NCBI GenBank assembly: GCA_029573015.1
Contig: JAKQHK010000101.1
Span: 1-43,487 of the forward strand
DNA length: 43,487 nt
Direction: 5' to 3'
Source: a bacterium
GTDB lineage: Bacteria > Patescibacteriota > CG2-30-54-11
In this document: in pieces, positions 107-31,863 of the stretch
Layout: each line of letters opens with the position of its first letter
Position numbering within the stretch: position 1 is the stretch's first letter
Notes under the pieces: model-generated
Told to the model about the DNA's origin: nothing
What the model saw: the letters and a program-made list of their open reading frames with translations, nothing else
The model's database searches: none
Program-made: the position numbers and the translations under genes

Positions 107-184
107 TGGGGTGACTGATGGGACTCGAACCCACGGCCTCCAGGGCCACAACCTGGCGCTCTAACCAACTGAGCTACAGTCACC
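107..184 (-). tRNA. tRNA-His (GUG), with G-1 and encoded CCA
   Basis: Reverse complement GGTGACTGTAGCTCAGTTGGTTAGAGCGCCAGGTTGTGGCCCTGGAGGCCGTGGGTTCGAGTCCCATCAGTCACCCCA folds as a cloverleaf; anticodon GTG, C73 discriminator. Confidence 0.96.
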
Positions 185-252
185 ATATTGATTGAATCGA
201 ATAATAAATGTACAGGATGAACCTTGGCCAAAGGCCAACCGTCCTCTGGACG

Positions 253-377
253 CAACTGCCCACCTCCGCTTATTCCTCTTTCGCTAACGCTTCAGAGGAC
301 TTCGGCTTCGGTGGATAATTTCGTCATCCACTCTCCGCCTACGGCGGATCGCGGTGACTCTCTAAAGCTACAGTCAC
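253..377 (-). repeat. Interrupted 5' copy of tRNA-His: GTGACTGTAGCT, then a 107-nt hairpin insert, then CAGTTG
   Basis: 377-366 is identical to tRNA-His nt 1-12 and 258-253 resumes the tRNA (CAGTTG). Insert 365-313 matches the 27955 repeat unit at 44/53 positions, ungapped. Confidence 0.85.
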
Positions 378-513
378 TACAAAACAGCTGAATAAAAATA
401 GCATAACTGACCAAAAAAGCAAACTCCTCTGTACTTCCCCGTTTTCGCAGAGCCGTCTCAAGGATAAATCTACGGGGTGGAACACGTCTCTCTTAATTTA
501 AGTGATTGTCACA

Positions 514-760
514 CTATATTTTCAATAATCTTTTGTGCATAAATGCTCGACCTGAACAAGTTTTTAAATATCGTTCAAAAGATAAGGCAAGCTCCTTGTC
601 ATCAAACGCAAAATAAGTTCTCAGTCTCCAAGGACGATATTTGCTAGTATAAACAGAATCGCCTTTATTATGTGCAGATACTCTCTGTAAAACATCCGTT
701 GTATAGCCAGTATAAACTTGCTCTGGATTCGCTATACTTTGAATGATATACCCAATACAT
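514..760 (-). pseudogene. Small GIY-YIG nuclease, frameshifted near the start
   Basis: Manual translation: ATG at 760 gives MYWVY. A shifted frame reads YIIQSIANPEQVYTGYTTDVLQRVSAHNKGDSVYTSKYRPWRLRTYFAFDDKELALSFERYLKTCSGRAFMHKRLLKI-stop (514). It has the VY..YTG, R..H and E.YLK motifs. Restoring 2 nt in the TATAT run joins the frames. Confidence 0.88.
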
Positions 761-801
761 TTTCGAATCGGTTAATATAATGGCTTGAAGTTAATTTAAT
801 C

Positions 802-919
802 TGCCCGCCTTCGTTATTCAACTTCGTCGGGCAGCCTTCGCTTCCTTTTTTTTGCAGTGGCGTGCCAGCCGTAGCTCGACAGAGCCCCATCGAATGACGG
901 GGCGAAAAAGAGCGAAGGC
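802..919. repeat. Cluster of GC-rich CGAAG/CTTCG-containing palindromes upstream of the GIY-YIG pseudogene
   Basis: tgcccgccttcg...cttcgtcgggca, agccttcgct...agcgaaggct and gccccatcgaatgacggggc form nested inverted repeats. Confidence 0.65.
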
Positions 920-1028
920 TGGTGCCCCCTTCGGGGATTACACCCCCTTCGGGGACTTCGCCCCCAGCAGGACTTCCTTCCCCTTCGTCGCGTTGCTCCT
1001 CAGTGTCAGGATAAACTTCTCGTCCTGC
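920..1028 (-). repeat. Interrupted 3' copy of tRNA-Arg(UCU), with inserts in the T-loop and acceptor strand
   Basis: Minus strand reads GCAGGACGAG[aag..hairpin..gaag]TCCTGCTGGG[two ccccgaagggg hairpins]GCACCA, versus tRNA GCAGGTTCGAGTCCTGCTGGGCGCACCA. Confidence 0.85.
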
Positions 1029-1130
1029 TTGATACTACTACCCCGTTTTCTGATGGACCGCTCCGAGGAAAACGGTCCCCTTTCTTTTGGCGTCACCTTT
1101 TCTTTCTTAAAGAAAAGGTGAAGGTATCAC

Positions 1131-1207
1131 TGGTGCGCCCAGCAGGACTTCCTACACTCCCCTCCGCCTTACGGCTCCGGCTCGCTTCAGGACAGGCTTC
1201 TCGTCCT
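1131..1207 (-). repeat. Second interrupted 3' copy of tRNA-Arg(UCU), with a T-loop insert
   Basis: 1131-1149 is identical to the tRNA 3' end (tggtgcgcccagcaggact). On the minus strand it is preceded by AGGACGAG[aag..hairpin..gaag]. Confidence 0.85.
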
Positions 1208-1210
1208 TTA

Positions 1211-1245
1211 TCTCAACTCACGACTCACAACTAACGACTCACGAC
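1211..1245. repeat. Degenerate 7-mer tandem repeat x5
   Basis: tctcaac tcacgac tcacaac taacgac tcacgac. Confidence 0.85.
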
Positions 1246-1252
1246 TATCTTG

Positions 1253-1329
1253 TGGTGCGCCCAGCAGGACTCGAACCTGCAACCTACTGCTTAGAAGGCA
1301 GTTGCTCTATCCAATTAAGCTATGAGCGC
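1253..1329 (-). tRNA. tRNA-Arg (UCU)
   Basis: Reverse complement GCGCTCATAGCTTAATTGGATAGAGCAACTGCCTTCTAAGCAGTAGGTTGCAGGTTCGAGTCCTGCTGGGCGCACCA; anticodon TCT, A20, CCA. Confidence 0.96.
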
Positions 1330-1475
1330 AGAAAGGCACGTATATATGGTAATGTGCTGCAACCTCTTACTCTTAAACTATACCATCAGCCGCCGAAAAA
1401 CCGCAACCGCTTTGGATTTACAGGCTACTCCGAGTTTGTTATGCTTTCACTATACAACTTAATAGTGGCGCAGCC

Positions 1476-2486
1476 ATGAGCCAGAATAAAAAGCAGCAGC
1501 ATGTCGATATCTGCCTGAAGCATCCGGTAGAGACCGGAACGAATGGTTTTGAAGCATACTGGTTTGAACATACCGCCCTACCGGAAATCGACCTGGCGGA
1601 AATAGCCACCAGTACGGAATTCCTTGGCAAAGCCATCAGCGCTCCGCTCATCATCAGCGCCATCACGGGCGGATCTGACAAGCTCGGAGCTATAAACCGC
1701 CATCTGGCACTGGCGGCACAACAACTCAATTTACCTCTCTGCGTCGGCTCGCTGAAAACCGCGCTCGAGCATCCGGAAACAGCCTCATCCTTTCAGGTAC
1801 GCCAGTATGCCCCCTCCATTCCCCTGCTCGCCAATCTCGGACTGGTGCAGCTCAATTACGGCTACGGACTGGACGAATGCCGAAGAGCAGTTGAGCTCAT
1901 CGAAGCGGATGCACTCGTGTTTCATCTCAACCCCCTCCAGGAAGCGATCAGCGCCGAGGGAGACACGAATTTCAAGCATCTGCTCTCCAAGCTGGAAAAA
2001 ATCATCCCGCAGCTTGGTGTACCGGTAATCATCAAGGAAGTCGGTTTCGGCATCTCCCGCCCGGTTGCCCAGAAACTTGCCAACATCGGGGTAAAATACA
2101 TCGACGTCAATGGCCGTGGCGGCACCAACTGGGCGCTCGTCGAAGGCATCCGAACGAACAATCCGATTAGCACAGCTTTTGCCACATGGGGCATTCCCAC
2201 GGCTACCTGCCTGCGTGACTGCCGGGATATTCACGGATTAACACTTATTGCCGGCGGTGGCATTCGTACCGGAGTCGATATCGCCAAATCCCTTGCGCTT
2301 GGCGCAGACTATGCCTCTCTGGCATTGCCTGTCCTCGCTGCTGCCGCTACCTCAGAGGCTGCGGTTGTCGAAGTTTTAACGGCACGCATCACCGAACTGC
2401 GCTATGCCATGTTCTCTACGGGCGAAAAAAACATCCACGCCCTGCAGCAGTCAAAAAAAATTCATCACCCGTCTGACCGGTTATGA
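1476..2486 (+). CDS. fni: Type 2 isopentenyl-diphosphate delta-isomerase (FMN-dependent)
   Basis: N-terminal K..HV..C, then ITGGS, HLNPLQE, KEVGFG, GRGGTNW and GGGIRTGVD motifs; 336 aa. Confidence 0.95.
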   Translation: MSQNKKQQHVDICLKHPVETGTNGFEAYWFEHTALPEIDLAEIATSTEFLGKAISAPLIISAITGGSDKLGAINRHLALAAQQLNLPLCVGSLKTALEHPETASSFQVRQYAPSIPLLANLGLVQLNYGYGLDECRRAVELIEADALVFHLNPLQEAISAEGDTNFKHLLSKLEKIIPQLGVPVIIKEVGFGISRPVAQKLANIGVKYIDVNGRGGTNWALVEGIRTNNPISTAFATWGIPTATCLRDCRDIHGLTLIAGGGIRTGVDIAKSLALGADYASLALPVLAAAATSEAAVVEVLTARITELRYAMFSTGEKNIHALQQSKKIHHPSDRL

Positions 2487-4270: not shown

Positions 4271-4762
4271 ATGGCAGACACATCAGTAACCAGCAAACAC
4301 GCTGTGCAACTCCTCGAGCTTTGTGCATCGCAGAACCTCACCCTCGCTGCTGCCGAATCCTGCACCGGCGGGGGCCTGGCCGCCTGTATTACCGGTGTAC
4401 CCGGCAGCTCCCACGTCTTCCGGGGCAGCATCGTCGCCTACAGCAATGAGATTAAAACAAGCGTCCTGCGCGTATCCCCTGAAACGCTCGCAGCGCATGG
4501 CGCGGTCAGCGAAGCGACCGCGCGGGAGATGAGCGAACGCATCTGCAGTCTCATGCACAGCGACATCGGCATCGGCATTACCGGCATCGCCGGCCCGGAC
4601 GGCGGCATGCCGGAAAAGCCGGTTGGGCTGGTGTATATCGCCATAACTGTCCAAGGGTCAACCGATGTAACGCAGCTGCACCTGATCGGCGACCGGCAGT
4701 CTATCCGCGAACAGGCTGTCAATGCCTCGCTTGATCAGTGTCTGAGAAAAATCAAGGGGTAG
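4271..4762 (+). CDS. cinA: CinA C-terminal domain / NMN amidohydrolase (PncC family)
   Basis: AESCTGG, PGSS, YSNE.K, GAVSE, GITGIAGP.GG...KPVGLV motifs. Confidence 0.93.
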   Translation: MADTSVTSKHAVQLLELCASQNLTLAAAESCTGGGLAACITGVPGSSHVFRGSIVAYSNEIKTSVLRVSPETLAAHGAVSEATAREMSERICSLMHSDIGIGITGIAGPDGGMPEKPVGLVYIAITVQGSTDVTQLHLIGDRQSIREQAVNASLDQCLRKIKG

Positions 4763-4953
4763 AGGTCAGAATTTAGAGGTTAGGGACTAGGAATAACCAT
4801 TCATAACAAGTTCTAACCAGCAATAACAGTTGGTTTGGGTCACGAGTCCAAAGTCTCTAGTCAGGGAACAGGTGTGAGGTGTACCGATACTATAGCGCCT
4901 GTCGCCTTTCCCCTGTACTCTCTCCCCTGCTCCCTTTGTGTTCTTCGTGGTAA
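4760..4953. repeat. Intergenic composite of degenerate 7-mer tracts
   Basis: tagaggt cagaatt tagaggt tagggac taggaat (4760-4794); agtccaa agtctct agtcagg gaacagg tgtgagg; gcgcctg tcgcctt tcccctg tactctc tcccctg. The last two tracts are partly complementary. Confidence 0.6.
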
Positions 4954-6476: not shown

Positions 6477-9400
6477 TTATGGCTCGATCGCCATCCAGTA
6501 GAACGAACTGTTGACATCGCCAGAACAATACGCAGTAAACTGGCTGGCAGTTACTCCACTTACCGTAACACGTGTGTTAACCGTATTGATCGGGGTAGCG
6601 GTTATAATCGGGGCTACACCAAAGGCAGCAGGATAATTAACAACAACAGTACCCGCTGCGCAGGTACCCATGCCCCTCTGCAAGTCAGCATCTGTCAGGA
6701 CGGTCGATCCACCAACTGTAGCGCTACCTGCGCTAAGAGCTCCAGCAGTTGTAATCGAACCAGCTGTTAGCGCTCCGCCAGTTGTAATACTTGCTGCGGA
6801 AAGCGCACCAGAAGTAGTAATGCTCCCTGCACTAAGTGCACCAGCAGTCGTAAAGCTTCCAGCAGATACTGCCCCGCTAGCTGTAAGTGATACTGCACCG
6901 ATTGACCCAGCACCAATGATATTGCCTCCCGTGATGGACAAACCACCATTAATAAAGCTCGCAGCAGTAAACGTACCACCAGCAGCAGTGATCGAGCCAT
7001 TAGACTGATCAATCCTAAGGACTTCTGCGCCAGCAGGAGCAACATTCGATCTCACAACAACATCACCAACAAAGGTGTTGTCATTGCCGGTTGAAGTCGT
7101 GCTGACATATCCGAACTGCCCAAGCCCTGCAGCCTGGATGCTGGAAACGCTAATCGTGGCGCTGGTGGCGCTGATATTGTTGCCTGCAATGGTCACATTG
7201 CCGTCATCATCTACAGAGAACACCGCATTGGCTGTACCGGAATTTTCAATCTCAAACCCACCGCCAGCCTGAACCGTAACCGGCTGACCGGTCGAATTAA
7301 CGATTTTCCCCTGGATATCAATGCTTCTTACGGTGGTATTACCGTCGACATTGAGTTCATTATTCAGATCAACATTTCCGCTTACCGTAGCTCCACCGCT
7401 GACCGTCATGCCATCTTCGATTGTTGCTCCGTCCTTGAGAGTTGTCGCTCCATTCACCGTCATGCCGCCGGTGATGGTAACACCAGCATTGAGTGTGGCA
7501 ATGTCATCATCAACCGTCACGCCGTCAAGAGTCGTTGCGCCGTTGACATCGAGGTTGCCGGTTACATTCAAGTTAGCAAGACCAAGAGCACCGGTCAGCG
7601 TCATGTTATCAGCAGTTATATCTGTGGCATCCACATCCCCATTCTCATCAACCGTGAAAACCGGCACAGCCGCAACGGAATTTACTTGAATCGCTACCGC
7701 ATCGTCAGCCGGTGTGAGGATGATATCCGTCGGATCGATGGAACCGCTCACATAAAGGTCGCCTATTACTGCGACATGTTTGCCTGTGCTGGCAGCATTT
7801 CCGAGCGGATCGACTGCAAACACAGTCGTCTCGGTTGTGTAATCCTGAACCGCGATACCCTGGTCATCCCGCAGATACAGCGGATTGGCTTCACCGGATC
7901 CGATAGAACCGGTTACATGCAGCCGGTCATTAACACTCACATAATTAGTGTCACTCGCTGTGCCGTTCATGATCGTTGCTGCGTAGACCGTGTTCCAACC
8001 GTTTGATCCGGATCCCAGATTCCTACTTCCGGTCGGAATAATGTTGGTGTTGATACGTCCGTTGACCGAAATCGTGTCAGCAGCAGCATCCCCGAGATCA
8101 ACCGTACCATTAAGCGTGGTGGCGCCGTCAACTGTCAAATTACCGGTATTATCCAGATCGCCATTATTCGTCGTCGGCTGTCCCATGGGATAGAATTGTA
8201 CATCGCCATAGAGATAGACGCCTTTGCCGGCACTACCGATGTCGGCATCACCGTCATGGTCAATCGCACTGTCAACATCACCACGAAAGAAATTACTGCC
8301 ATGTAATGTCATATCGCCGTAGAAATCCGATGCCGCTTGCACCGTCAGGACATCATTCAGTGTGGTCGCCCCATCAACGTCAAGCGTGCCGGTGATGTAG
8401 GCATCATCACAATAGGTGGATCCCCCCACCGCAACACTCAAGCAACCGATGAAGTCGTCAGCATAGATTTCATCCCATTCCAACCCTGCTGCACCAAGAT
8501 CAAATGTTTGGTGTGCGTTGGGAACAACATCGCTGTTGATGCGGGCATTGTAGACGACTATGTCGCCCAATGCATCACCAAGGAGAGTATTGCCCGAGAC
8601 AGATAGTGTATTACCGACACTTACGTTGTTGCTGATTGTTGCATTGTTACCAACGGTCAAATTGACATCGGCGGTAACATTGTTTAAAGCTCTGACATTA
8701 TTGTCCGCTCGTACATCTACCGCGGACCGGATGGTGTTGGCAGCATACACATTGCCATCCTCTGTGACCAGGAAAACATCAGCGGTATCAAGTGAATCAC
8801 GCACCTCGATCACATCCTGGCCATCCCCGATCGGCTGGAAATAAATCGCCGTGGGATCAATAGTACCGGTTACCTCCAGGTCGCCATTGATACTCACTTC
8901 ATAGTGAGACGCCATAGGGCCCGCCTCTGGTACGCCATTACGCATGGTGACAAAAGTATTGCCATCACTGCGGAAATCAAACCCATGGCTATCGCCAAAG
9001 ATGAGGGGGTCAGCATCTCCGGAACCGATGGAATCAGTGACGAGCAGACGGTCATCAACCATGACATATCCGCTGTTAGCAGCAGGATTGCTGTTGTAGA
9101 TGGCTCCCTGGATATCGATTGTATCAGTAGCGTCAGTCCCCAGCACCGTATCTTCGTAAACATTCAAATAGTCGGTGTTGATTGTCGTCGCCGTAATGGT
9201 ATCAACAAACAGATTAGCCCACTCACGTGCTGCAGAACCGAGATTATAAGCAAGCGTCGTGCTTGGCAGAACGTCCGCTCTTATATCCACAATACCTGTC
9301 TGGGGCACGAGGAAAATATTTCCTCCGCCGGCTGTGGTACGAATGGTGAGTGCCCCGCCAACTTTCTGAATTGCATTATTAAGCACTCCTGTCTGGTTGC

Positions 9401-12047
9401 CCGGCATTCCTACCTGCACACTGTTCGAATAATACCCACTGTTCCACCGATCCATGCCAGTACCTAAATCCCAGCTACCTCCCTGTGGAACAACATGACC
9501 GTAGGAATACGTGTAATTGCTACTCGGCCATAATTCAACATCATATCCACCCATCGTACCAAGTATAATATCCATACCGATACTGCCAACAGCTCCGGGA
9601 ACGATACCACTGATTGTCCCGCTCCCATTAATATCACCAACTGCAACCCCCTGACTGAAAAATCCAGCCATCCAGCGATTATTCGGATCACCAAGTAAAT
9701 ACATATCGTCAACGCCAGGGAATAGGTTATCATCAATAATTACGTCGCCGATAGAATTATATATTCTATCCTGAGCATCTATGTCATCATAATAATGTTC
9801 TGGACTGCTGTGGAATGACTCTCCGTAAACATATAAGTCATTGTGCACAATAGTGTCACCAGCCGCATCAACCTCAAACCAATCTGTACCGCTGCCATAA
9901 TGCTCTACCAGGAAGCCATCATTGTCAGCCACGATGAGCTGCTGCCCGGGAGCGGTTGATCCGCTACCGATAGAGACCGGAACGAGCAGGCGGTCGTCAA
10001 CGAGCACGTGGCCGTTATTTGCCGTACCAAGATTAACAATCCGATCCTGCGCATCGATATCATCATAATAGTGCTCTGGTCCATAGTGTTCTGACTCAGC
10101 ATACACGGTTAGATACTCAGTATAGACATTACCGGTATACACATTGTTCCATCTGCTCCATGGCTTGCCAAGATCATAGGTTAAGTCCATGGTGGGAATA
10201 ATATCCGCGGCTGATCGTACTTTTTCATTGCCGGGCCGCAATACGACATTATGCTCTGGTGCCAGGACGATATTGTAATTTCCGCCGCCGTCTGTCACCA
10301 GTCGCATATCCTGCCCTACAGTCCTCAAACCATTGTCCCGAAGGACAGTTTGCAGTCCGGCTACTCCTACCCGAACGGTATCAGAGAAAAATCCGTCACT
10401 CCAGCGGTAGTTCGGCAAGCCGATGGAATACATGCCATTGGACTCAGGCACGAGGTCAGTGGCAAATCTGCCGTTGGCATAGAGCAGATCGCTCGTGTCA
10501 TCCCCGAGATAGACATATCCGTTCAGATAGGTATCACCGTCAACCGTTATGTCGCCTAGATTATAGTAATTCCCATAATTAGTGGTAACAACATCGGGAA
10601 AGAAATCAATAGCTCCCCAAAGTGCCACATCTTTGCCATAGTCACCAATATCTGCATCACCGTAGTGATCAATATAGCTGTATTCATTGCCATAAAACAA
10701 TGCTGTAAAAGTATCCGTCCCAATCAGATTGATGCTGTCATAGTAATACTCAGGCCCGTAGTGGTAGGACTCGCCATCAACTGCGAGATTACCATCGATC
10801 CAGACATCCCCGGTTACCTCCAGGTTGTCATCCACAACCACAATGTCAGTTATGGAATTAGTAATGGTTGTCTGGGCATCCAGACCGCCATGTACGATTG
10901 CATCCGCGGCGACCTCCAGGCTGTCATCCACGACGACCATACCGGTGTCTGAATTAACGATTGTACCCTGCGCATCAATGATGTCGTAAAAATGCTCCGG
11001 ACCGTTATGGAATGACTCGGTATTCACGGTCAGAGTGTCCACAGTCAGGTCAGTAGCAATGATGGTATCAACGTAAATATTAGCCCATTCATTACCGAGC
11101 GCACCAAGGTCATAGGTGCTGTCTGCGGTTGGCTGGATATTTGCTCCAAACAGATTGCCATTCTCATCCACGAGGAATGAGCTGGCGCCGCTCGTGTCGC
11201 GCACGTCAATAGCCGTATCGCCGTCAGCTACTGGTTCCAGTAACATGTCGGTAGCATTAACGCCTGCGGTTACATACAGCCCGCCGATCACTCCGACCGT
11301 CTCTCCATTGGGTCCGATACCGGTTTCGTCGACGTAGAGCGTGCCATCAGCCGCGAGCGTGCCGGTGGTGGTATCGTCTACGGTCAGATCAGTATAGGGA
11401 TTAATCTTATCGCCGGTGACCGAACCGTCCTGAATGGCAAAGGTGCCGACGGCATCCTCGGACAGCTGGTCACTCGTGATGGCATGCGGGGTGATGTACT
11501 CGGTTCCGACTGCCCAGATACGCATATCATGCCAGTTGACATCCCCTTCCTTGATCTGCAACGTGCCGATTGATTCAGGACCTGCACCGACAGTATTGGT
11601 AACGTAGGTTGTCGGATTCGTGACCACGGTTGTACCAGTGCCGGTTGTACCGGTGCCAGTGGTACCAGTGGTGTTACCCACCTCGCTGACCCGGGATTCC
11701 AGTTCATCCACCCTGTCGGTCAGGTCAGTAATGGTTGCCGAGCTTCCTGCATCCACGACGAGATTGGCACCCTCGGCTGTATCAGAAACACCGAGAACCT
11801 GCCCCCCCATCTTCTTACCTTCTTCACCGGGATACAGAACCGCCCCGAATACGGTATCATTTCCGCTAAACTTGATCCCTACTGCCAGTTCATCATCCAG
11901 CTGGTCAACCCCGACTGCCTGCGCTTCGATCTGGTCTCCCTTGATCGTCTGCGAACCGCTGTAGGCGACATAGCCGAGCACGCCTGACAGGATCGCGAGA
12001 ACCCCAAAGACTGCAACTGCGACCTTCAGTCCTTGTTGGTCTTTCAT
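6477..12047 (-). CDS. Giant (~1,856 aa) membrane-anchored, repetitive beta-rich surface/fibre-like protein
   Basis: Long uninterrupted ORF; AGGGAG RBS favours ATG at 12047. It has an N-terminal TM, recurring YDLG....W..(I/V)Y, ES.H.GPE.YYD.IDAQ and V.DRL.V..SIGSG modules, and a C-terminal domain (V.YP.AF...P.I.AT) resembling tail-fibre/H-lectin ends. Confidence 0.85.
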   Translation of the reverse strand: MKDQQGLKVAVAVFGVLAILSGVLGYVAYSGSQTIKGDQIEAQAVGVDQLDDELAVGIKFSGNDTVFGAVLYPGEEGKKMGGQVLGVSDTAEGANLVVDAGSSATITDLTDRVDELESRVSEVGNTTGTTGTGTTGTGTTVVTNPTTYVTNTVGAGPESIGTLQIKEGDVNWHDMRIWAVGTEYITPHAITSDQLSEDAVGTFAIQDGSVTGDKINPYTDLTVDDTTTGTLAADGTLYVDETGIGPNGETVGVIGGLYVTAGVNATDMLLEPVADGDTAIDVRDTSGASSFLVDENGNLFGANIQPTADSTYDLGALGNEWANIYVDTIIATDLTVDTLTVNTESFHNGPEHFYDIIDAQGTIVNSDTGMVVVDDSLEVAADAIVHGGLDAQTTITNSITDIVVVDDNLEVTGDVWIDGNLAVDGESYHYGPEYYYDSINLIGTDTFTALFYGNEYSYIDHYGDADIGDYGKDVALWGAIDFFPDVVTTNYGNYYNLGDITVDGDTYLNGYVYLGDDTSDLLYANGRFATDLVPESNGMYSIGLPNYRWSDGFFSDTVRVGVAGLQTVLRDNGLRTVGQDMRLVTDGGGNYNIVLAPEHNVVLRPGNEKVRSAADIIPTMDLTYDLGKPWSRWNNVYTGNVYTEYLTVYAESEHYGPEHYYDDIDAQDRIVNLGTANNGHVLVDDRLLVPVSIGSGSTAPGQQLIVADNDGFLVEHYGSGTDWFEVDAAGDTIVHNDLYVYGESFHSSPEHYYDDIDAQDRIYNSIGDVIIDDNLFPGVDDMYLLGDPNNRWMAGFFSQGVAVGDINGSGTISGIVPGAVGSIGMDIILGTMGGYDVELWPSSNYTYSYGHVVPQGGSWDLGTGMDRWNSGYYSNSVQVGMPGNQTGVLNNAIQKVGGALTIRTTAGGGNIFLVPQTGIVDIRADVLPSTTLAYNLGSAAREWANLFVDTITATTINTDYLNVYEDTVLGTDATDTIDIQGAIYNSNPAANSGYVMVDDRLLVTDSIGSGDADPLIFGDSHGFDFRSDGNTFVTMRNGVPEAGPMASHYEVSINGDLEVTGTIDPTAIYFQPIGDGQDVIEVRDSLDTADVFLVTEDGNVYAANTIRSAVDVRADNNVRALNNVTADVNLTVGNNATISNNVSVGNTLSVSGNTLLGDALGDIVVYNARINSDVVPNAHQTFDLGAAGLEWDEIYADDFIGCLSVAVGGSTYCDDAYITGTLDVDGATTLNDVLTVQAASDFYGDMTLHGSNFFRGDVDSAIDHDGDADIGSAGKGVYLYGDVQFYPMGQPTTNNGDLDNTGNLTVDGATTLNGTVDLGDAAADTISVNGRINTNIIPTGSRNLGSGSNGWNTVYAATIMNGTASDTNYVSVNDRLHVTGSIGSGEANPLYLRDDQGIAVQDYTTETTVFAVDPLGNAASTGKHVAVIGDLYVSGSIDPTDIILTPADDAVAIQVNSVAAVPVFTVDENGDVDATDITADNMTLTGALGLANLNVTGNLDVNGATTLDGVTVDDDIATLNAGVTITGGMTVNGATTLKDGATIEDGMTVSGGATVSGNVDLNNELNVDGNTTVRSIDIQGKIVNSTGQPVTVQAGGGFEIENSGTANAVFSVDDDGNVTIAGNNISATSATISVSSIQAAGLGQFGYVSTTSTGNDNTFVGDVVVRSNVAPAGAEVLRIDQSNGSITAAGGTFTAASFINGGLSITGGNIIGAGSIGAVSLTASGAVSAGSFTTAGALSAGSITTSGALSAASITTGGALTAGSITTAGALSAGSATVGGSTVLTDADLQRGMGTCAAGTVVVNYPAAFGVAPIITATPINTVNTRVTVSGVTASQFTAYCSGDVNSSFYWMAIEP
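6711..6875 (-). repeat. Five tandem 33-bp (11-aa) coding repeats
   Basis: GAVSAGSFTTA GALSAGSITTS GALSAASITTG GALTAGSITTA GALSAGSATVG. Confidence 0.9.
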
Positions 12048-12224
12048 AGACATTCTCCCTAAAAAAGGTAGATAAGGTATTTCGGATTTTATTTTATTTT
12101 GTACGAATATATATAGAAGGCGTAACACGCCATAAAAAAGCTCTCGACCTGATCATCAGTGAGCTCGTTTATTTCCAAACTGTATCTAAATAACTTCGTC
12201 AACCTGGAAATACCCAGCGAGAGT

Positions 12225-27851: not shown

Positions 27852-27942
27852 CACAACGATGTAAAACGCCTTAATGATTGGAATCTACTGGACAAATGCT
27901 ACACTTATACTCCATACTAGCAAAGCATATCCCGTCTTTCGT

Positions 27943-28184
27943 GCCCCCTAAGTTTTAGTGAATCACCGCGAAGCGCCGCAGGCGGTGAGCGGATGATGAA
28001 CTTATCCTCGGAACGAAGAGAAGGTGGGTTAGTGAATCACCGCGAAGCGCCACAGGCGATGAGCGGATGATGAACTTATCCTCGGAACGAAGTTAAGACG
28101 GGTTAGTGAATTACCGCGAAGCGCCACAGGCGATGAGCGGATGATGAACTTATCCGCCGCAGCGAAGCGAAGGCGGACAACTGG
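27943..28184 (+). repeat. Interrupted 5' copy of tRNA-Arg(UCG) containing three tandem 74-75-nt hairpin units
   Basis: gccccctaagtt (27943-27954; tRNA has gcccccttagct), units starting at 27955, 28029 and 28103, then caactgg (28178-28184) resumes the tRNA D-loop. Confidence 0.88.
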
Positions 28185-28237: not shown

Positions 28238-28314
28238 GCCCCCTTAGCTCAACTGGATAGAGTACCTGGCTTCGAACCAGATGGTTGGGGGTTCAAATCC
28301 TCCAGGGGGCACCA
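28238..28314 (+). tRNA. tRNA-Arg (UCG)
   Basis: GCCCCCTTAGCTCAACTGGATAGAGTACCTGGCTTCGAACCAGATGGTTGGGGGTTCAAATCCTCCAGGGGGCACCA; anticodon loop CTTCGAA, A20, CCA. Confidence 0.95.
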
Positions 28315-28337
28315 CCGACAATACAAACGATTGGGAT

Positions 28338-28479
28338 CAACCCAACCCGTCAGATCCCGTGAGCGCAGCGAAGCGGGATTCAAATCCTCCAGGGGGCACC
28401 AATGATAACATTTTCGAATAAGACCAACTCAACCCGTCAGATCCCGTGAACAGCGTGAAGCGGGATTCAAATCCTCCAG
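28338..28479 (+). repeat. Two 87-nt-period units: hairpin plus duplicated tRNA-Arg(UCG) 3' end
   Basis: caacccgtcag-atcccgtga..gaagcgggat-tcaaatcctccag(ggggcacca); 28379-28401 is identical to the last 23 nt of the tRNA. Confidence 0.88.
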
Positions 28480-28527
28480 TAGACCACCTGTGTTCCTATT
28501 TTTTCACTTAATCCGCAAGCATAATCC

Positions 28528-28824
28528 ATGGCAGCCATCAGACGTATCGTACTTGACACCCTCAAACCGCACGAACCCGGCATCATCGAACTGGCGGAAA
28601 AAATCAGCGACCAGCCCGGCGTCGACGCGGTCAATATCAGCATTTATGAAATGGACCGCAAAGTTGAAAATGCCAAGATCACCATCGAGGGGAATAATAT
28701 CCAAGTTGATGAAGTATTCAAGATTGTAAAAGATTATGGTGCCAGTATCCACTCCATCGATGAAGTCGTCGCCGGCAAAAAAATCATCGATGATTCCGAA
28801 ACTCCCCAGGACAGCTATAACTGA
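28528..28824 (+). CDS. DUF211 family protein
   Basis: IRR.VLD.LKPH.P.I.E.A, GV..VNI...E.D and G.SIHSIDEV..G motifs. Confidence 0.88.
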   Translation: MAAIRRIVLDTLKPHEPGIIELAEKISDQPGVDAVNISIYEMDRKVENAKITIEGNNIQVDEVFKIVKDYGASIHSIDEVVAGKKIIDDSETPQDSYN

Positions 28825-29408: not shown

Positions 29409-29441
29409 CGTTGACGCGTTATCAAATCTTATTCTTCCAAC

Positions 29442-29480
29442 AAAAAAAGAGCAGACTCGCAATATCGAGGCTGCTCTTTT
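29442..29480. terminator. Bidirectional terminator
   Basis: aaaaaaagagcag...ctgctctttt between convergent genes. Confidence 0.75.
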
Positions 29481-29505
29481 CATATGCTGAAATTTTGGGT
29501 ATGTC

Positions 29506-30690
29506 TTAAAAAACCGGCTTGGCGATAAAGATCAATTCGTGCGCGTAGTTACCCGAAGGCTGCAAATTATTCACCTCGAGCTGCAAGGTGATATTAGTAT
29601 AATCCTGGCCCTCGATATCACTTTGCGTTGCTTCATGATGATACAGAATTTCTTCTGATGTTGTGGTGAATCCGGCATATTTGGTAGCAGTAGCGAACCG
29701 ATTGGGACCATCCCCAACTGTATTCAATGTCGTATCGCTGGTGGTATAACCGAGAAACCCTGTATCAACCCCCAGCGTTGTTCCAGTCGGTGATGTCCAG
29801 TCTACCGGAGCATCATTAGTCCCAACCGCGACATTCTTGATTGGGTCAATATCAATTGTCGGGTCCACCGCATGCAGCATATTGGTATCCTGTTTGATGT
29901 AAACGGTGAAACCGTTCTGCGCATCAGTATTGACTTTGGCACGCATCACCGCGGTCTTGGCCACTCCCGGAGTGATTTCCCGCCATTCGATGAGGTTGGG
30001 GGCAATCACACCCCCATCCGGAGGGGTAATTCCGGATATCTCAAAGGTCATATGCGGTTTTTGTCCCGCATACTCCTCAACATGCTCAATCGTAGCAACG
30101 AGTAATTCAATCGTGTCGATTATCACACTGCTTCCGTCTGCAGAAGTTATATCCACAGACCATACATCTCCGGAGCCAATTGGATTTACTTTCGCCGGAT
30201 TGACGATCTGCTCTGCGCCCGTCACCCCGTACGTGGCTATAGTACCGATCTCTATGACAATCGCAGAATCTGCAGCCACAGTATCCGTATCGTTGTTTGT
30301 CAGAACTAGCGATCCGCTCGTGCCGCTCGTCACCGCCACGCCCCAGGCGCTTCCTGCTCCGCTGCCGGCTGAGGCAGCCAGAGGCACATCTGATCCGTTC
30401 AGCGAAAGATCACAATCTTCGTAATCCATAGCAACCGGGATCGTAAAATATGTCGCTTCCGGTTCGATCGTGATCGTCCCACCAGCTGGTATCGCCTGTT
30501 TGTTTGTCAGCGTGATTATCCAGTCGGATCCCGTAGCTGGTTTGGATTCAAGTAGTTCAACGCTCGCATCATAAAACTGCATTTGTACCGCATGCGCACC
30601 CCGGCTCGAGAGCAACACGACAGCAAAACAACCCATAACAGCCAAAGCAGATATTAGTGCCGTATGCAAACGGTATCGCGAATTCATCAT
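29506..30690 (-). CDS. Secreted beta-rich hypothetical protein
   Basis: Signal peptide (AHA cleavage site); T/S/G-rich; V.TDA..GF.VY motif and C-terminal Q.SG.Y...L.FIA.P.F typical of CPR surface proteins. Confidence 0.8.
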   Translation of the reverse strand: MMNSRYRLHTALISALAVMGCFAVVLLSSRGAHAVQMQFYDASVELLESKPATGSDWIITLTNKQAIPAGGTITIEPEATYFTIPVAMDYEDCDLSLNGSDVPLAASAGSGAGSAWGVAVTSGTSGSLVLTNNDTDTVAADSAIVIEIGTIATYGVTGAEQIVNPAKVNPIGSGDVWSVDITSADGSSVIIDTIELLVATIEHVEEYAGQKPHMTFEISGITPPDGGVIAPNLIEWREITPGVAKTAVMRAKVNTDAQNGFTVYIKQDTNMLHAVDPTIDIDPIKNVAVGTNDAPVDWTSPTGTTLGVDTGFLGYTTSDTTLNTVGDGPNRFATATKYAGFTTTSEEILYHHEATQSDIEGQDYTNITLQLEVNNLQPSGNYAHELIFIAKPVF

Positions 30691-30773
30691 GCGTTTATCC
30701 TGTATATACCTGTATAATCAGCCTTTCCCATAGTACCGCAAGTCAGAAGCGGTTGTCCAGCGCGCAAATACCC

Positions 30774-30802
30774 TTGCAGAGCCAGGACGGGATTGGTAAA
30801 AT
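30774..30802 (+). promoter_or_regulatory. Promoter of the tRNA-Lys locus (TTGCAG-N17-TAAAAT, with TG extension)
   Basis: ttgcag at 30774-30779 and taaaat at 30797-30802, 24 nt before the broken tRNA copy. Confidence 0.65.
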
Positions 30803-30826
30803 ACTGTTTGTCGCATAAATAGGCGC

Positions 30827-30942
30827 GGGTCGCTAGCTTCAGATCATTCGATCTGATAAACAATCGGTAGTTAGTTGCCTCTTAAGCAATTGGTTCAGGG
30901 TTTCCGGTCATCCGACCGGACCGGGTCGTATGACCCGGCGAG
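30827..30942 (+). pseudogene. Interrupted, 3'-truncated copy of tRNA-Lys with two hairpin inserts
   Basis: gggtcgctagct[tcagatcattcgatctgataaa]caatcggtagttagttgcctcttaagcaattggttcagggtt[tccggtcatccgaccgga ccgggtcgtatgacccgg]cgag. Confidence 0.9.
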
Positions 30943-30972
30943 TTATGTTTAATAACCCACTATGCTGTCTCA

Positions 30973-31254
30973 ATGTATTACGTCTATTTTCTACTCCTCG
31001 CCAATGGCGACATATACAAAGGTTCGTGTTCTGATGTGCAACAACGTCTGATTGATCATCAAAACGGTCGTGTCAAATCCACCCAGCATTATCTGCCATT
31101 TCATCTTATCGGATACGAATGTTATTATTTAAAAAGTGATGCGCTGAGAAGAGAAAAATTCCTGAAAACAACAGAGGGGCGTCGTTTACTCAAACAGCAA
31201 TATAAGGATATAATTAATCATCTGACCGAAAATATTTCCCAAACGGGTCGCTAG
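30973..31254 (+). CDS. Small GIY-YIG nuclease (UPF0213/SLX1-like)
   Basis: MYYVYFL....G.IYKG...D...RL..H..G...ST..Y.P..L..YE......A..RE.FLKT..GR; its last codons and stop lie within the tRNA-Lys 5' end. Confidence 0.93.
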   Translation: MYYVYFLLLANGDIYKGSCSDVQQRLIDHQNGRVKSTQHYLPFHLIGYECYYLKSDALRREKFLKTTEGRRLLKQQYKDIINHLTENISQTGR

Positions 31255-31319
31255 CTCAATGGTAGAGCAGTTGCCTCTTAAGCAATTGGTTCAGGGTTCG
31301 AGCCCCTGGCGACCCACCA
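31245..31319 (+). tRNA. tRNA-Lys (CUU)
   Basis: GGGTCGCTAGCTCAATGGTAGAGCAGTTGCCTCTTAAGCAATTGGTTCAGGGTTCGAGCCCCTGGCGACCCACCA; anticodon CTT. Confidence 0.96.
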
Positions 31320-31344
31320 TATAGTCATTTTTTCCTGTTTGACA

Positions 31345-31779
31345 TCAGGGGCGAGAAGTAAGATCCCCTGCAATCCCGAAGCTCTGGGATGGAAGGGGAA
31401 GCCCCTGGTTTACCCGCCGAACCCTGAACGAAGTGAAGGGGAAGGCGGGCGACCCACCACAGATCTTAACGAATCGGCCAACGGACGATGAGTTTAGAAA
31501 TGTGGTGTACCGGATGATGTCAGATCAGCATCCGGTACAGAGCAAGAAAACGTTAGTATGCAAAGCGTTTCCACAGGATGGAAAATTTTTTTATCAGGGG
31601 CGAGACGTACAGCCCTGAGTATAGAGAAGAACAAGGTCCGCTGTAGTCAGCCAAAGGCTGACGGAAGCGGAAGCCCCTGGTTTACCCGCCGAACCCTGAA
31701 CGAAGTGAAGGGGAAGGCGGGCGACCCACCACAGATCTTAACGAATCGGCCAACGGACGATGAGTTTAGAGATGTGGTG
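31345..31779 (+). repeat. Two interrupted 3' copies of tRNA-Lys, including a 111-bp direct repeat (31397-31507 and 31669-31779, 1 mismatch)
   Basis: tcaggggcgag[variable hairpin..gaag]cccctgg[tttacccgcc..ggcggg]cgacccacca at 31345-31459 and 31594-31731. Confidence 0.9.
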
Positions 31780-31835
31780 AATTGATTGACGCACCAGCGA
31801 CAACTAAAACTATATAAAACATCGGTTGTAAGCAG

Positions 31836-31863
31836 GCTCTTCCTCGTAGGAAGAGCTTTTTTT
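31836..31863 (+). terminator. Intrinsic terminator closing the tRNA-Lys locus
   Basis: gctcttcct-cgt-aggaagagc-ttttttt. Confidence 0.8.

Follow-up and report, generated by a model that had tools for sequence, protein, structure and literature searches.

The window, meaning the whole 43,487-nt stretch analysed (contig JAKQHK010000101.1 of a Patescibacteriota bacterium, assembly GCA_029573015.1), contains exactly four tRNA genes, on which ARAGORN and Rfam agree, and two GIY-YIG genes on the tRNA strand. The features form three clusters:

107-183, minus strand: intact tRNA-His(GUG) (ARAGORN; Rfam, 70.6 bits)
224-253, minus strand: D-loop-type double hairpin (two short triloop-class hairpins, read from the sequence) within the displaced 5' copy of tRNA-His, flanked by CAGTT (254-258, tRNA positions 13-17) and GGTT (220-223)
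259-365, minus strand: 'family A' insert of 107 nt, interrupting the displaced His copy between tRNA positions 12 and 13
366-377, minus strand: displaced 5' copy, tRNA-His positions 1-12, identity beginning exactly at +1
514-760, minus strand: GIY-YIG gene of subfamily 3 (PF01541, E 4.2e-13); ATG at 758-760, 2-nt frame shift after codon 5, stop at 514-516, open domain frame 517-750 (85 aa)
802-919, minus strand: 'family C' structured module, beginning right after the CCA of an Arg 3' copy and preceding the subfamily-3 ORF; its 4-nt-loop hairpin (885-902) resembles the first T-loop hairpin in kind
920-974, minus strand: 3' copy 2 of tRNA-Arg(UCU), with positions 59-70 (963-974), a 37-nt hairpin insert (926-962) and positions 72-77 (920-925)
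1131-1149, minus strand: 3' copy 1 of tRNA-Arg(UCU), positions 59-77, ending exactly at CCA
1253-1329, minus strand: intact tRNA-Arg(UCU) (ARAGORN, Rfam)
27941-27954, plus strand: degenerate 5' copy of tRNA-Arg(UCG), read by eye, 12 of 14 nt identical (below the exact-match threshold of 11 nt), broken after AGTT
27955-28155, plus strand: three tandem family A units following that copy (blastn identity 100, 97 and 94%)
28238-28314, plus strand: intact tRNA-Arg(UCG) (ARAGORN, Rfam)
28354-28401, plus strand: hairpin (28354-28379) abutting 3' copy 1, positions 55-77 (28379-28401)
28441-28479, plus strand: hairpin (28441-28466) abutting 3' copy 2, positions 55-68 (28466-28479)
30827-30942, plus strand: displaced 5' part of tRNA-Lys, aligning with 34 double hairpins of other genomes; positions 1-12 (30827-30838), single 4-nt-loop hairpin at 12/13 (30839-30856), positions 25-54 (30873-30902), T-loop double hairpin (30903-30920 and 30921-30938), T-loop CGAG (30939-30942)
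30973-31254, plus strand: intact GIY-YIG gene P0001, 93 aa, catalytic domain only (PF01541, E 1.5e-10); its TAG stop is T8-A9-G10 of tRNA-Lys
31245-31319, plus strand: intact tRNA-Lys(CUU) (ARAGORN, Rfam)
31345-31459, plus strand: tRNA-Lys 3' relic 1, with positions 47-52, a 49-nt hairpin insert, positions 57-65, a 39-nt insert (31409-31447) containing an inverted copy of tRNA-Lys positions 45-56, and positions 64-75
31460-31550, plus strand: first copy of a 'family B' module, directly after the CCA of relic 1
31594-31731, plus strand: tRNA-Lys 3' relic 2, built as relic 1, with an identical 39-nt insert (31681-31719); covered by an independent contig
31732-31779, plus strand: second copy of the family B module (98% identity)
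31834-31858, plus strand: terminator-like hairpin and T run closing the Lys cluster, a pattern match of a kind whose count is not above that in shuffles

Same-strand partial self-copies accompany all four tRNA genes, as the first-pass annotation had proposed, and were confirmed in the window by exact matches of at least 11 nt. That annotation had also located the four genes rightly, except that the end of the His gene was 1 nt off and that His and Arg-UCU lie on the minus strand. Both GIY-YIG genes that it had placed on the tRNA strand in two of the three clusters were found, the one at 514-760 being frame-shifted by 2 nt and, from its reading frame, probably a pseudogene or 5'-truncated. Its remark that the window lacks integrases and transposases holds for the three domains searched on this contig, tyrosine integrase, Y1 transposase and TnpB, none of which gave a match. 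The Lys cluster is not an assembly artefact: an independent Logan contig matches 30700-31672 without a single difference, a run of another study covers 30771-31117 and 31601-31774 identically, and the arrangement is thus reproduced by independent contigs from two studies.

The pattern extends over the genome, in which 18 of 31 tRNAs carry same-strand partial self-copies. With 12-mers and flanks of +/-600 bp around the 31 tRNAs, 31 same-strand matches were obtained versus 2 on the opposite strand, the controls giving 37 matches in 898 mismatched tRNA/flank pairs and 49 in 3100 random windows; the excess of partial copies is far above chance. Upstream copies came from the 5' half in 8 of 9 cases and downstream copies from the 3' half in 22 of 22, as had been claimed from the window, and the genome-wide tabulation bears out inserts at recurring tRNA positions, with 5' copies broken after position 12 (7/9) or 17 (2/9) and 3' copies starting at about Sprinzl 54-60, in the T-loop (16/22), or at 64-66 (6/22).

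T-loop and acceptor-3' crossover sublocations are reportedly classical for tyrosine integrases, as Williams is said to have described in 2002. The resemblance of the break sites to these sublocations, together with one integrase gene adjoining tRNA-Thr on contig C2, could suggest att-site duplications left by decayed integrase-driven islands or phages in tRNA genes. This origin is nevertheless very unlikely, given the lack of an integrase match on this contig, the regularity of the 5' copies, which equals that of the 3' copies, the distance of just 60-420 bp between copies and genes, and a cargo consisting, at 74 of 80 loci, of a GIY-YIG gene; five relatives have 1-2 integrase matches each (best 145-148 bits), perhaps Xer-like housekeeping genes, and by coordinates none lies beside the elements. 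The outer copies mostly start exactly at +1 (8/9) or end exactly at CCA (15/19), and the genome holds one reverse-transcriptase gene, which would be in keeping with retro-copies of mature tRNA fragments. However, tRNA-Asn encodes no CCA and its copies share the genomic trailer, a relative's repeat extends 32 nt past CCA, and the repeat in one filled allele takes in 5 nt that precede +1, so that retro-copying, like assembly artefacts in view of the contigs from two studies, is hardly credible and already largely refuted.

Short GIY-YIG genes had been expected to be enriched near tRNAs, and the enrichment proved strand-specific and phylum-wide. The relatives of P0001 (43-71% identity) come mostly from many lineages of Patescibacteria, a few being labelled Kiritimatiellae, Verrucomicrobiota, Omnitrophota, Cloacimonadota or Victivallales. 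Counting best matches per genome, whose kin are not independent, a tRNA lies within 300 bp in 74 of 80 P0001-type loci, beside 26 of 30 loci of a second subfamily (C60-type, named after a contig) and beside 15 of 29 loci of the third type, that of the 514-760 gene, always on the same strand. For P0001 relatives, the tRNA is just downstream in 58 and just upstream in 16, and four of the other six loci are interrupted by contig ends. In three near-complete genomes, 14 of 26 GIY-YIG matches have a tRNA no more than 300 bp away, in every case on their own strand. This genome, in which all three subfamilies are represented, places 4 of its 7 small GIY-YIG genes beside tRNAs, the share of the genome within 600 bp of a tRNA being 2.4%. 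C60-type genes occur, often in several copies, in 152 of 301 genomes (an even sample of the phylum), and relatives of the 514-760 gene in 79 of 301.

The usual layout runs from a displaced tRNA piece through a conserved double hairpin and the ORF to the intact tRNA, the displaced piece being a 5' piece where the ORF precedes the intact tRNA and a 3' piece where it follows. Where the tRNA is downstream, a self-copy of at least 10 nt precedes the ORF in 43 of 55 loci, seven cleanly preserved loci retaining an error-free copy that runs from +1 as far as the T-loop and measures up to 72 nt; where it is upstream, a 3' copy starting CGA(A/G)TCC is present in 8 of 14. In relatives of subfamily 3, as in the window, the order is tRNA (or 3' fragment), module and ORF, and the module, of about 100 nt, begins right after CCA. 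The P0001-type module consists of a double hairpin, 2 x 18 nt, located at TTCG^AA of the T-loop; a CG separates its two hairpins and another flanks it on each side (a CG duplication). It also occurs in anticodon loops reading YTCG^AA. The C60-type module pairs two triloop hairpins at the D-loop motif AGTT^GG, frequently accompanied by one more hairpin at AGCT^C (12/13), and is the type seen at 224-253. The T-loop type accompanies 35 of 80 P0001-type versus 0 of 30 C60-type loci, and the triloop type 3 of 80 versus 9 of 30.

The double hairpin is present in 38 copies at 37 of 80 P0001-type loci with a 20-nt period, its loop letters A..C then G..T being invariant in 35 of 35 aligned copies. Standard pairs fill 99.8% of cells, a score partly due to construction because perfect inner stems were the criterion for selecting the double hairpins, and 98.8% in the outer four pairs, those left free by that selection. 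All 14 of 14 pairs change on both sides, with G-U in just 2 of 489 cells.

Such nearly complete Watson-Crick pairing would also be expected of DNA-level palindromes, raising the possibility that the hairpins form an independent class of REP/MITE-like elements, which Y1 (IS200/RAYT-type) transposases or host recombination mobilise and which prefer single-stranded tRNA-gene loops, while the GIY-YIG genes only borrow tRNA promoters and make no structures. The genome does contain one RAYT-like gene and two IS200-like Y1 genes flanked by hairpins, 10 of its 17 hairpin pattern matches, of the same core, lie away from tRNAs, and one hairpin module recurs in multiple dispersed copies in genus g12 (genomes G012 and G086). 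These three observations count against a cassette, indicating that the hairpins might move alone or by another enzyme, and so does the finding that families A and B in the window show no ORF link; family A is low-copy and was found always beside tRNAs, on their strand, and nowhere else. We nevertheless regard independent hairpin elements as improbable, in both their mobility and their proposed relation to the GIY-YIG genes. Y1_Tnp was not found in G012 (100% complete) or G026 (99% complete), and G012 still has hairpin-split tRNA copies beside GIY-YIG genes; both hairpin type and tRNA position go with the GIY-YIG subfamily, the place of the module relative to the ORF is fixed, and the doubled CG at the palindromic TTCGAA agrees with the 2-nt stagger known for GIY-YIG enzymes.

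Orthologous loci of the congeners G012 and G039, a comparison that the first-pass annotation had called for, differed at 3 of 3 loci, one genome having the filled site and the other a plain tRNA. The cassette unit thus appears to come and go, although filled/empty pairs from one genus cannot by themselves tell gain from loss. For tRNA-Trp, 36 nt of the displaced piece agree without exception with the sister species' tRNA, from which the intact tRNA differs at 9 of the same 36 positions (counted from alignment rows) and, taken whole after the ORF, at about 17 of 71 positions, including both acceptor strands; in this one case the intact tRNA is, by sequence comparison, foreign. The proposal that repair duplicates tRNA segments therefore fits less well than a resident tRNA displaced by a cassette with its own tRNA, and the double hairpin, which repair had been conjectured to deposit, is a conserved, subfamily-specific module.

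The strict same-strand rule and tight spacing, ORFs terminating within the tRNA, a promoter-like site upstream that is common to filled and empty alleles (by eye) and persistence in half of the phylum could instead point to domesticated tRNA-operon parts, in which the nuclease and the tRNA-like leaders or trailers would benefit the host by, for instance, repairing tRNA genes or correcting their copies, providing RNA processing signals, or acting as decoys against tRNA-targeting phages or integrases. Both such service and these roles seem unlikely in view of the patchy, multi-copy distribution, the many different tRNAs occupied, presence/absence between congeners, the pseudogenes and ORF-less relics, and identity of up to 71% across deeply separated lineages.

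The three clusters are probably live and decayed small selfish cassettes dwelling in tRNA genes, and it is likely that such cassettes inhabit the tRNA genes of ultra-small bacteria and give back a working tRNA. The selfish reading, a part of the earlier, partly supported interpretation that stands, is the best one because of the tRNA association, the fixed insert motifs, the pairing of subfamily with module, and the filled and empty sites. A cassette would consist of a minimal GIY-YIG gene, a short conserved hairpin module and tRNA sequence that leaves the host with an intact tRNA gene, either kept or restored. It would lie on the tRNA strand, with the intact tRNA to one side and, to the other, a displaced remnant of the tRNA that formerly resided there; the module would split this remnant at a conserved tRNA motif. 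The nuclease could cut element-free tRNA genes with a 2-nt stagger at palindromic TTCGAA or other motifs, and an element-bearing copy could then serve as repair template, with homology arms supplied by the tRNA sequence (homing). The ORF is presumably transcribed from the tRNA promoter. Repeated invasion and ORF loss may then have produced nested, hairpin-interrupted tRNA fragments with the oldest remains outermost. We infer here the nuclease activity, cleavage and target of the GIY-YIG proteins and the role of the hairpins. TTCGA is retained by the intact tRNA neighbouring the element at 64 of 74 loci, compared with 24 of 31 in the background, so that no immunity change is seen; this counts against the cassette, as does self-cleavage, for which it gives no account.

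The architecture had been thought undescribed, but SegB of phage T4 is a published precedent. Reports on it (PMC2330249, PMC13096335) describe it as a free-standing GIY-YIG nuclease in a tRNA cluster that recognises the T-loop motif GGTTCRANTCC and leaves 2-nt 3' overhangs, its breaks driving segmental amplification of tRNA genes. T4 segB lies between tRNA genes, on their strand, and is the closest known system in being a free-standing GIY-YIG nuclease among tRNA genes with a T-loop motif. The small proteins of this class differ in being about 80-95 aa with the catalytic domain only, whereas SegB has 221 aa; their membership in the SegB family was considered and rejected.

The small GIY-YIG proteins are UPF0213-like (P0001 versus UPF0213 structure 1zg2, E 6e-5), and the catalytic residues Y, Y, G, R, H and E are invariant in 14 of 14 sequences; they have no DNA-binding domain, a further point against the cassette. 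A symmetric homodimer was predicted with ipSAE 0.81 (best of 3 controls, 0.00). Proteins of solved structure reached that mark in 20 of 30 cases when the structure was a pair and in 1 of 23 when it was a single chain, counts that hold roughly because our own alignment was used. Three runs agreed in 100% of contacts with partner pLDDT of at least 90, and the model suggests that the nuclease is probably a symmetric dimer.

We consider it probable that the tRNA clusters of the window are live or decayed selfish GIY-YIG cassettes residing in tRNA genes. All four tRNA genes, called by ARAGORN and Rfam, are accompanied by partial copies of themselves on the same strand, and these are placed as the first-pass annotation had described, with 5′ copies upstream and 3′ copies downstream:

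107-183, minus strand, tRNA-His
1253-1329, minus strand, tRNA-Arg-UCU
28238-28314, plus strand, tRNA-Arg-UCG
31245-31319, plus strand, tRNA-Lys-CUU

The pattern could be followed through the whole draft genome G000 (1.35 Mb, 140 contigs, 50% G+C, 68.6% complete), to which the window belongs. Comparison of its 31 tRNAs with their own ±600-bp flanks by exact 12-mers yielded 31 same-strand versus 2 opposite-strand matches, with at least one match in 18 of the 31 tRNAs; the controls gave 37 matches in 898 mismatched tRNA/flank pairs and 49 in 3100 random windows. The direction rule was near-absolute, upstream matches coming from the 5′ half of the tRNA in 8/9 cases and downstream matches from the 3′ half in 22/22. 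Insert positions, claimed to recur within the window, are recurrent rather than random across the other tRNAs of the genome: with ^ marking the insertion point, 5′ copies break after position 12 (..AGCT^ or ..AGTT^) in 7/9 and after position 17 (..CAGTT^) in 2/9, and 3′ copies start at about Sprinzl positions 54-60, in the T-loop, in 16/22 and at 64-66 in 6/22. The outer copies have an exact +1 start in 8/9 and an exact CCA end in 15/19, the exceptions being tandem units, and the tRNA-Ala of the rRNA spacer shows the same copy pattern. Concerning assembly artefacts, the Lys cluster was reproduced by independent contigs from two studies: one Logan contig spans 30700-31672 with zero differences, and contigs from a run of a second study cover 30771-31117 and 31601-31774. 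Since the statistics are above chance and independent contigs reproduce the Lys cluster, the observation is regarded as confirmed.

The exact +1 starts and CCA ends prompted the idea of tRNA retro-copies, which was rejected, given that tRNA-Asn is without CCA, that the repeat of one relative extends 32 nt beyond the CCA, and that one filled allele shares 5 nt of the upstream flank.

Minimal single-domain GIY-YIG genes are usually annotated merely as 'GIY-YIG nuclease family protein'. Eight PF01541 matches were found in G000, seven of them small genes, and four of these seven adjoin tRNAs on the tRNA strand, as judged by coordinates; the zones up to 600 bp from a tRNA make up only 2.4% of the genome. 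The seven small genes are as follows:

30973-31254, plus strand, gene of P0001 (the 93-aa GIY-YIG protein of the window), its stop overlapping tRNA-Lys
517-750, minus strand, gene of the third type, between tRNA-Arg-UCU and tRNA-His
C60:4488-4700, tRNA strand, 45 nt before tRNA-Pro
C3:12580-12783, tRNA strand, 277 nt after tRNA-Ser
C44:16730-16951, tRNA-distant, other type with N-terminus YY.YIL.., ~100 aa
C94:8220-8435, tRNA-distant, the same other type
C96:28319-28537, tRNA-distant, the same other type

The three tRNA-distant genes are each bracketed by direct repeats of ~45-100 bp holding hairpins, and may represent the same kind of cassette residing in other repeats. The suggestion that short GIY-YIG genes are enriched near tRNAs in this and related genomes proved right for all three subfamilies. 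In three near-complete relatives, 14/26 GIY-YIG matches lie at most 300 bp from a tRNA, 14/14 on its strand. For the P0001-type subfamily, 80 loci encoding relatives with 43-71% identity were collected (best matches per genome, with kin being non-independent), and a tRNA was present within 300 bp in 74/80, on the same strand in 74/74, following the ORF in 58 (mostly within ~40 nt) and preceding it in 16; contig ends cut four of the six loci without a tRNA nearby. The tRNA species was Ser in 40/74 loci, with Lys, Arg, Gln, Asn, Met, Tyr and others also represented. The relatives of G000 are genomes of 0.5-2 Mb, and the relatives of the P0001 gene that bear names are mostly 'Patescibacteria group' MAGs, which suggests that G000 itself is probably a member of Patescibacteria/CPR. 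The second subfamily, named C60-type after its contig, has matches (E ≤ 1e-8) in 152/301 evenly drawn genomes of the phylum, and a same-strand tRNA within 300 bp in 26/30 loci. The third type has matches (E ≤ 1e-10) in 79/301 phylum genomes and a same-strand tRNA within 350 bp in 15/29 loci, 13 of them with the tRNA upstream of the ORF. P0001 belongs to the GIY-YIG superfamily and is UPF0213-like (PF01541, E 1.5e-10; PDB 1zg2, UPF0213 BH0048, E 6e-5; 1ywl, E 0.0022), and the GIY-YIG residues Y5, Y15, G17, R25, H29 and E61 are invariant in 14/14 sequences.

Two layouts were recognized among P0001-type loci. In layout A, tRNA positions 1-57 are followed by a double hairpin, positions 58-~62, a 10-25-nt spacer, the ORF, 3-40 nt and the intact tRNA; a self-copy of at least 10 nt lies upstream of the ORF in 43/55 loci with enough upstream DNA, and seven well-preserved loci show it as a perfect copy, running from the exact +1 to the T-loop over up to 72 nt. 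The Lys cluster of the window follows this layout: positions 1-12 and, at 12/13, one hairpin of the same kind come first, then positions 25-54 and the double hairpin (30903-30938), and finally CGAG, the ORF and tRNA-Lys. In layout B, the intact tRNA comes first, followed by 0-20 nt, the ORF and CGA(A/G)TCC to the tRNA 3′ end, and the final codons of the ORF traverse GGTTCG and the double hairpin to a stop codon within the loop of the second hairpin; the 3′ copy was seen in 8/14 loci. Two loci from other genomes have more than one unit: in L010 (in G007) the ORF is flanked on both sides by identical hairpin-split 5′ copies, and L024 (in G031) has two tandem GIY-YIG ORFs, each behind a split 5′ piece of tRNA-Asn. 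Both look like serial invasions caught mid-process.

The double hairpin is a ~40-nt unit of two 18-nt hairpins, CC-NN-GTC-(4-nt loop)-GAC-NN-GG, which CG precedes, separates and follows, and 38 copies occur in 37/80 P0001-type loci. Its loop letters, A..C in the first hairpin and G..T in the second, are invariant in 35/35 aligned copies, which makes the unit dyad-symmetric. The NN letters differ among copies, with standard pairs in 99.8% of cells, 14/14 pairs changed on both sides and G-U in 2/489 cells; the copies having been selected by perfect inner stems, this pairing score is partly by construction, and the outer four pairs, which were left unfixed, reach 98.8%. The near-absence of G-U points to a pairing that would be relevant at the level of DNA, not of RNA. 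Insertion is at TTCG^AA, mostly in the T-loop, and in six loci in an anticodon loop reading YTCG^AA or CCG^AA. Inserts at TTCG^AA have CG on both flanks, the outcome expected if the palindrome TTCGAA were cut at its CG with a 2-nt stagger.

The double hairpin was also considered as an intron-like element, which would be removed from an otherwise functional tRNA, but excision of each hairpin or pair in silico followed by a new ARAGORN run gave few 'restored' tRNAs, and these were false completions because identity ends ~5 nt past the insert. A group I intron-encoded endonuclease was likewise rejected, with no intron family match in the window and an intact tRNA gene always adjoining the ORF.

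The C60-type module consists of two ~15-nt triloop hairpins at the D-loop site AGTT^GG, often with an extra hairpin at AGCT^C (12/13), and without an ORF it occurs in displaced 5′ copies, that is, partial copies beside an intact gene, of the window tRNA-His (224-253) and of the tRNA-Ala on contig C112. The T-loop double hairpin was found in 35/80 P0001-type versus 0/30 C60-type loci, and the triloop module in 3/80 versus 9/30. In the third type, an upstream tRNA or 3′ fragment ending in CCA is followed straight after the CCA by a ~100-nt structured module and then by the ORF; the window instance comprises the module at 802-919 and then a frameshifted gene at 514-760 on the minus strand, and modules without an ORF trail several other G000 tRNAs or 3′ copies. 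Since each subfamily has its own module and position, the break classes are largely the home positions of three nuclease lineages, with 64-66 and, by eye, 70-72 as the break sites without an ORF link. Two ORF-less families of inserts in the window, family A in the displaced His copy and after the degenerate Arg-UCG 5′ copy and family B after the Lys relics, returned by blastn only a few diverged copies, all adjoining tRNAs.

Comparison of the window tRNA flanks with 30 tRNA loci of family relatives by tblastn gave no synteny match, so that filled and empty alleles were compared in another genus. Between the congeneric genomes G012 and G039, 3/3 compared element loci were filled in one and had a plain tRNA in the other; the proposed polymorphism of orthologous loci thus exists at three loci of one genus, a presence/absence at a conserved site as in homing endonuclease genes. 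The tRNA-Ser-GGA locus is filled in G012 and empty in G039, with a promoter-like TTGGCT-17-TANAAT upstream in both; in its D-loop, as read by eye like the promoter, the displaced copy equals the empty allele, from which the intact tRNA behind the ORF departs at two positions. At tRNA-Asn the filled allele is that of G039 and the empty one that of G012; the former runs from the flank through positions 1-20, a 46-nt hairpin and positions 22-36 to the ORF and the tRNA, and 5 nt of its upstream flank are repeated. This hairpin (positions 1479-1524 of the G039 locus L209) is a dispersed repeat with more than 10 copies in the sister genomes G012 and G086, and other multi-copy short stretches of the same locus lie at about 988-1022, 1410-1450 and 1875-1900.

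The tRNA-Trp locus is again filled in G039 and empty in G012. Its displaced 5′ piece, 14 + 22 nt long and carrying hairpins at 14/15 and behind the anticodon, matches the G012 tRNA without a difference, whereas the intact G039 tRNA-Trp differs from it at ~17/71 positions, both acceptor strands included (a count from alignment rows), and at 9/36 over the span of the displaced piece. At least here, the cassette therefore brought its own whole tRNA and pushed the resident aside. On this view, the 'duplications' would be displaced resident parts, and serial invasions would leave nested relics, in keeping with the series of two or three copies seen at Lys, Arg-UCG, Arg-UCU, Asn and Ala. For the identical 96-103-bp units repeated in tandem at Asn and Ala, plain tandem duplication may be the explanation instead. 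The earlier idea of a selfish stand-alone nuclease is largely upheld, with three amendments: a precedent exists in phage SegB, the tRNA pieces appear to be displaced rather than made by repair, and 'deposition' of the hairpins is at most a conjecture.

Displaced tRNA parts also recall integrase attachment sites. Tyrosine-integrase elements, according to work ascribed to Williams in 2002, reportedly target tRNA genes at T-loop and acceptor sublocations, and such integrative elements are said to carry part of the tRNA, restoring it and leaving the displaced part as a direct repeat, much as here. Unlike them, the cassettes have no integrase, their cargo is below 400 bp, and the displaced part may be 5′ or 3′. 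Attachment-site relics were rejected after a search for tyrosine recombinases (PF00589) in G000 and five relatives, with no match on the contig, and with one to two integrase matches per genome in the five relatives, none adjoining elements.

A minor rival is that Y1/RAYT transposases drive the hairpins. REP/RAYT systems pair short GC-rich palindromes with a dedicated small nuclease-type gene, a likeness to the cassettes, but the RAYT fold is HUH Y1 rather than GIY-YIG, and REPs spread intergenically and are not known to be inserted at fixed tRNA positions. G000 does encode Y1 transposases, namely two IS200-like genes with flanking hairpins and one RAYT-like gene of 249 aa, and a reverse transcriptase:

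C14:2952-3311, IS200-like Y1 gene
C73:104-466, IS200-like Y1 gene
C132:556-807, RAYT-like gene
C127:344-982, reverse-transcriptase gene

Hairpins of the same kind occur away from tRNAs in 10/17 pattern matches in G000, and one hairpin module recurs as many dispersed copies in G012 and G086, as would suit such an enzyme. Y1_Tnp is present in G000, G007, G039 and G001. Nevertheless, it was not found in G012 or G026 (100% and 99% complete), and G012 still carries hairpin-split copies, so that Y1 does not accompany the palindromes wherever they are, as it would in a REP/RAYT or IS200/IS605 system. No TnpB was found in G000 at its 68.6% completeness.

Returning to the cassette reading, analogy with SegB suggests that the nuclease would cut an element-free tRNA gene at a conserved motif and that a copy carrying the element would serve as template for repair of the break. 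Since tRNA sequence lies on either side of the cassette, the tRNA can act as homology arms, and transfer would hence need no conserved flanks, which would explain 71% protein identity across deeply separated lineages. A counterpoint is that it is not obvious how a protein of 85 aa would read a long site. That the nuclease is a dimer is suggested by the palindromic target together with the dyad symmetry of the double hairpin, and a two-copy fold supports a symmetric homodimer: this predicted assembly scored 0.81 versus 0.00 for the best of three controls, with contacts agreeing 100% among runs and a partner pLDDT of at least 90. The dimer mark was reached by 20/30 proteins solved as pairs and 1/23 solved as single chains, benchmark counts that hold only roughly for a fold made with a custom alignment.

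The same-strand rule, the ORFs ending inside the tRNA and the promoter-like site shared upstream suggest transcription of the ORF from the tRNA promoter; promoter and terminator scans gave counts not above shuffles, and their sites are pattern matches only. No RNA dataset was listed as holding the sequence. In P0001 and L024 the TAG stop is the tRNA's own T8-A9-G10. The hairpin module may shield the displaced copy from cutting, serve as a binding or working site of the enzyme, or be a tiny mobile unit. No immunity change was seen in the T-loop of the intact tRNA beside the element, which keeps TTCGA in 64/74 loci versus a background of 24/31, so that self-cleavage must be avoided otherwise.

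Fungal mitochondria reportedly offer a parallel: Paquin, Laforest and Lang are said to have described there, in 1994 and 2000, free-standing GIY-YIG ORFs with duplicated gene ends, and mobile double-hairpin/GC-cluster elements. As in our cassettes, the endonuclease ORF is said to bring a replacement gene end and leave the old end as a fragment, with paired GC-rich hairpins as tiny mobile units; unlike here, the hosts are reportedly organelle protein genes rather than bacterial tRNA genes. A fixed link between hairpin module and nuclease subfamily is not known to have been described for these mitochondria.

The available portions of the SegB literature (PMC2330249, PMC13096335) describe a free-standing GIY-YIG homing endonuclease of the phage T4/T6 tRNA gene cluster, which has the T-loop motif GGTTCRANTCC as its recognition site and generates 2-nt 3′ overhangs, the cut often falling directly behind CCAR; it co-spreads with adjacent tRNA genes, phage genomes show an enrichment of its homologues near tRNAs, and SegB-dependent breaks with recombination amplify or duplicate tRNA segments. 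The T4 gene stands between tRNA-Ile, 41 nt upstream, and tRNA-Arg, 5 nt downstream, on the tRNA strand, and the cassette genes likewise lie by tRNA genes on the same strand (74/80, 26/30 and 15/29 loci). Unlike SegB, with 221 aa including a DNA-binding part, the proteins here have 80-95 aa and only the catalytic domain, and P0001 is not a member of the SegB family (BLASTP E 1.5; hhalign probability 14%, catalytic domain only; 93 versus 221 aa). The elements here are also chromosomal, in cellular genomes, unlike phage SegB, and P0001 had no tblastn match among 50,697 phage records. The conserved hairpin module and displaced hairpin-split tRNA piece occur here, with no mention of either for SegB in those portions of its literature (PMC2330249, PMC13096335). 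By this analogy the cassettes would work like SegB yet add a hairpin module and a displaced split tRNA piece.

In CPR rRNA genes, GIY-YIG ORFs lie within non-intron insertions, as the accessible part of one study reports (Tsurumaki et al. 2024, PMC11270868); that case resembles ours in the bacterial group and in small GIY-YIG ORFs within structured-RNA genes without an intron fold, and differs in that the same part of its text never mentions tRNA. Our literature search, covering sources outside subscription journals, returned no account of small GIY-YIG genes at bacterial tRNA genes, and in main texts none of hairpin-split tRNA copies; supplements, such as the SegB-homologue tables (PMC13096335), lay outside its scope and could hold prophage or bacterial cases.

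A local oddity would thus become a general class, that of tRNA-gene-resident mobile cassettes of ultra-small bacteria, each with its own hairpin module at a fixed tRNA position, and a cellular counterpart to phage SegB. It would provide a natural system for asking how an 85-aa nuclease without a DNA-binding domain finds its target, with a dimer on a palindrome or DNA-hairpin recognition as candidates, and the short defined target (TTCG^AA) with a tiny protein could be of interest to enzyme engineers. It would also explain many of the 'tRNA gene fragments' that complicate the annotation of tRNAs in metagenome-assembled genomes, and suggests that tRNA genes of these reduced genomes are replaced horizontally. 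A bolder joint reading, which we hold to be rather unlikely, is that the double hairpin stems from dimeric GIY-YIG cut-and-join at TTCG^AA and that the cassette is an 'addictive' tRNA-replacement element. If so, self-complementary CG overhangs would be used, with the double hairpin as footprint or working site, and the GIY-YIG protein would be transposase-like for a ~40-nt unit, as RAYT is for REPs. The cassette would break the resident tRNA gene and supply its own, hence could not be lost. Such cassettes, present in about half of Patescibacteria, would then be a major class of mobile DNA not described so far, shaping tRNA gene repertoires.

Several further features were observed. The GIY-YIG ORFs of the window (30973-31254) and of loci L024, L013, L069 and L075 extend into the downstream tRNA, with the stop codon inside it. 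In the 16S-23S spacer at C112:4587-5070 (locus L142), tRNA-Ala is directly preceded by a 5′ relic with a D-loop double hairpin and followed by two tandem 3′ relics with T-loop double hairpins, so that even the rRNA spacer has been invaded. The acceptor-strand inserts of the Lys 3′ relics, at 31409-31447 and 31681-31719, contain an inverted 12-nt copy of tRNA-Lys positions 45-56, which hints at template switching in repair. After tRNA-Arg-CCG on C22, tRNA-Leu on C34 and tRNA-Arg-ACG on C113, short hairpins are followed by the final 6-7 nt of the tRNA (..GCACCA or ..GCGCCA), sometimes serially, resembling mini-helices ending in CCA; they may be an extra break class at about position 70-72. A 1883-aa ORF at 6477-12128 on the minus strand of the window has as its sole family match a phage endosialidase catalytic domain, weak and below the cut-off (E 1.2e-4). 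Imperfect heptamer repeat runs adjoin tRNA genes and occur within the rRNA spacer at 1203-1250 of the window and at ~4700-4770 and 5070-5110 of C112.
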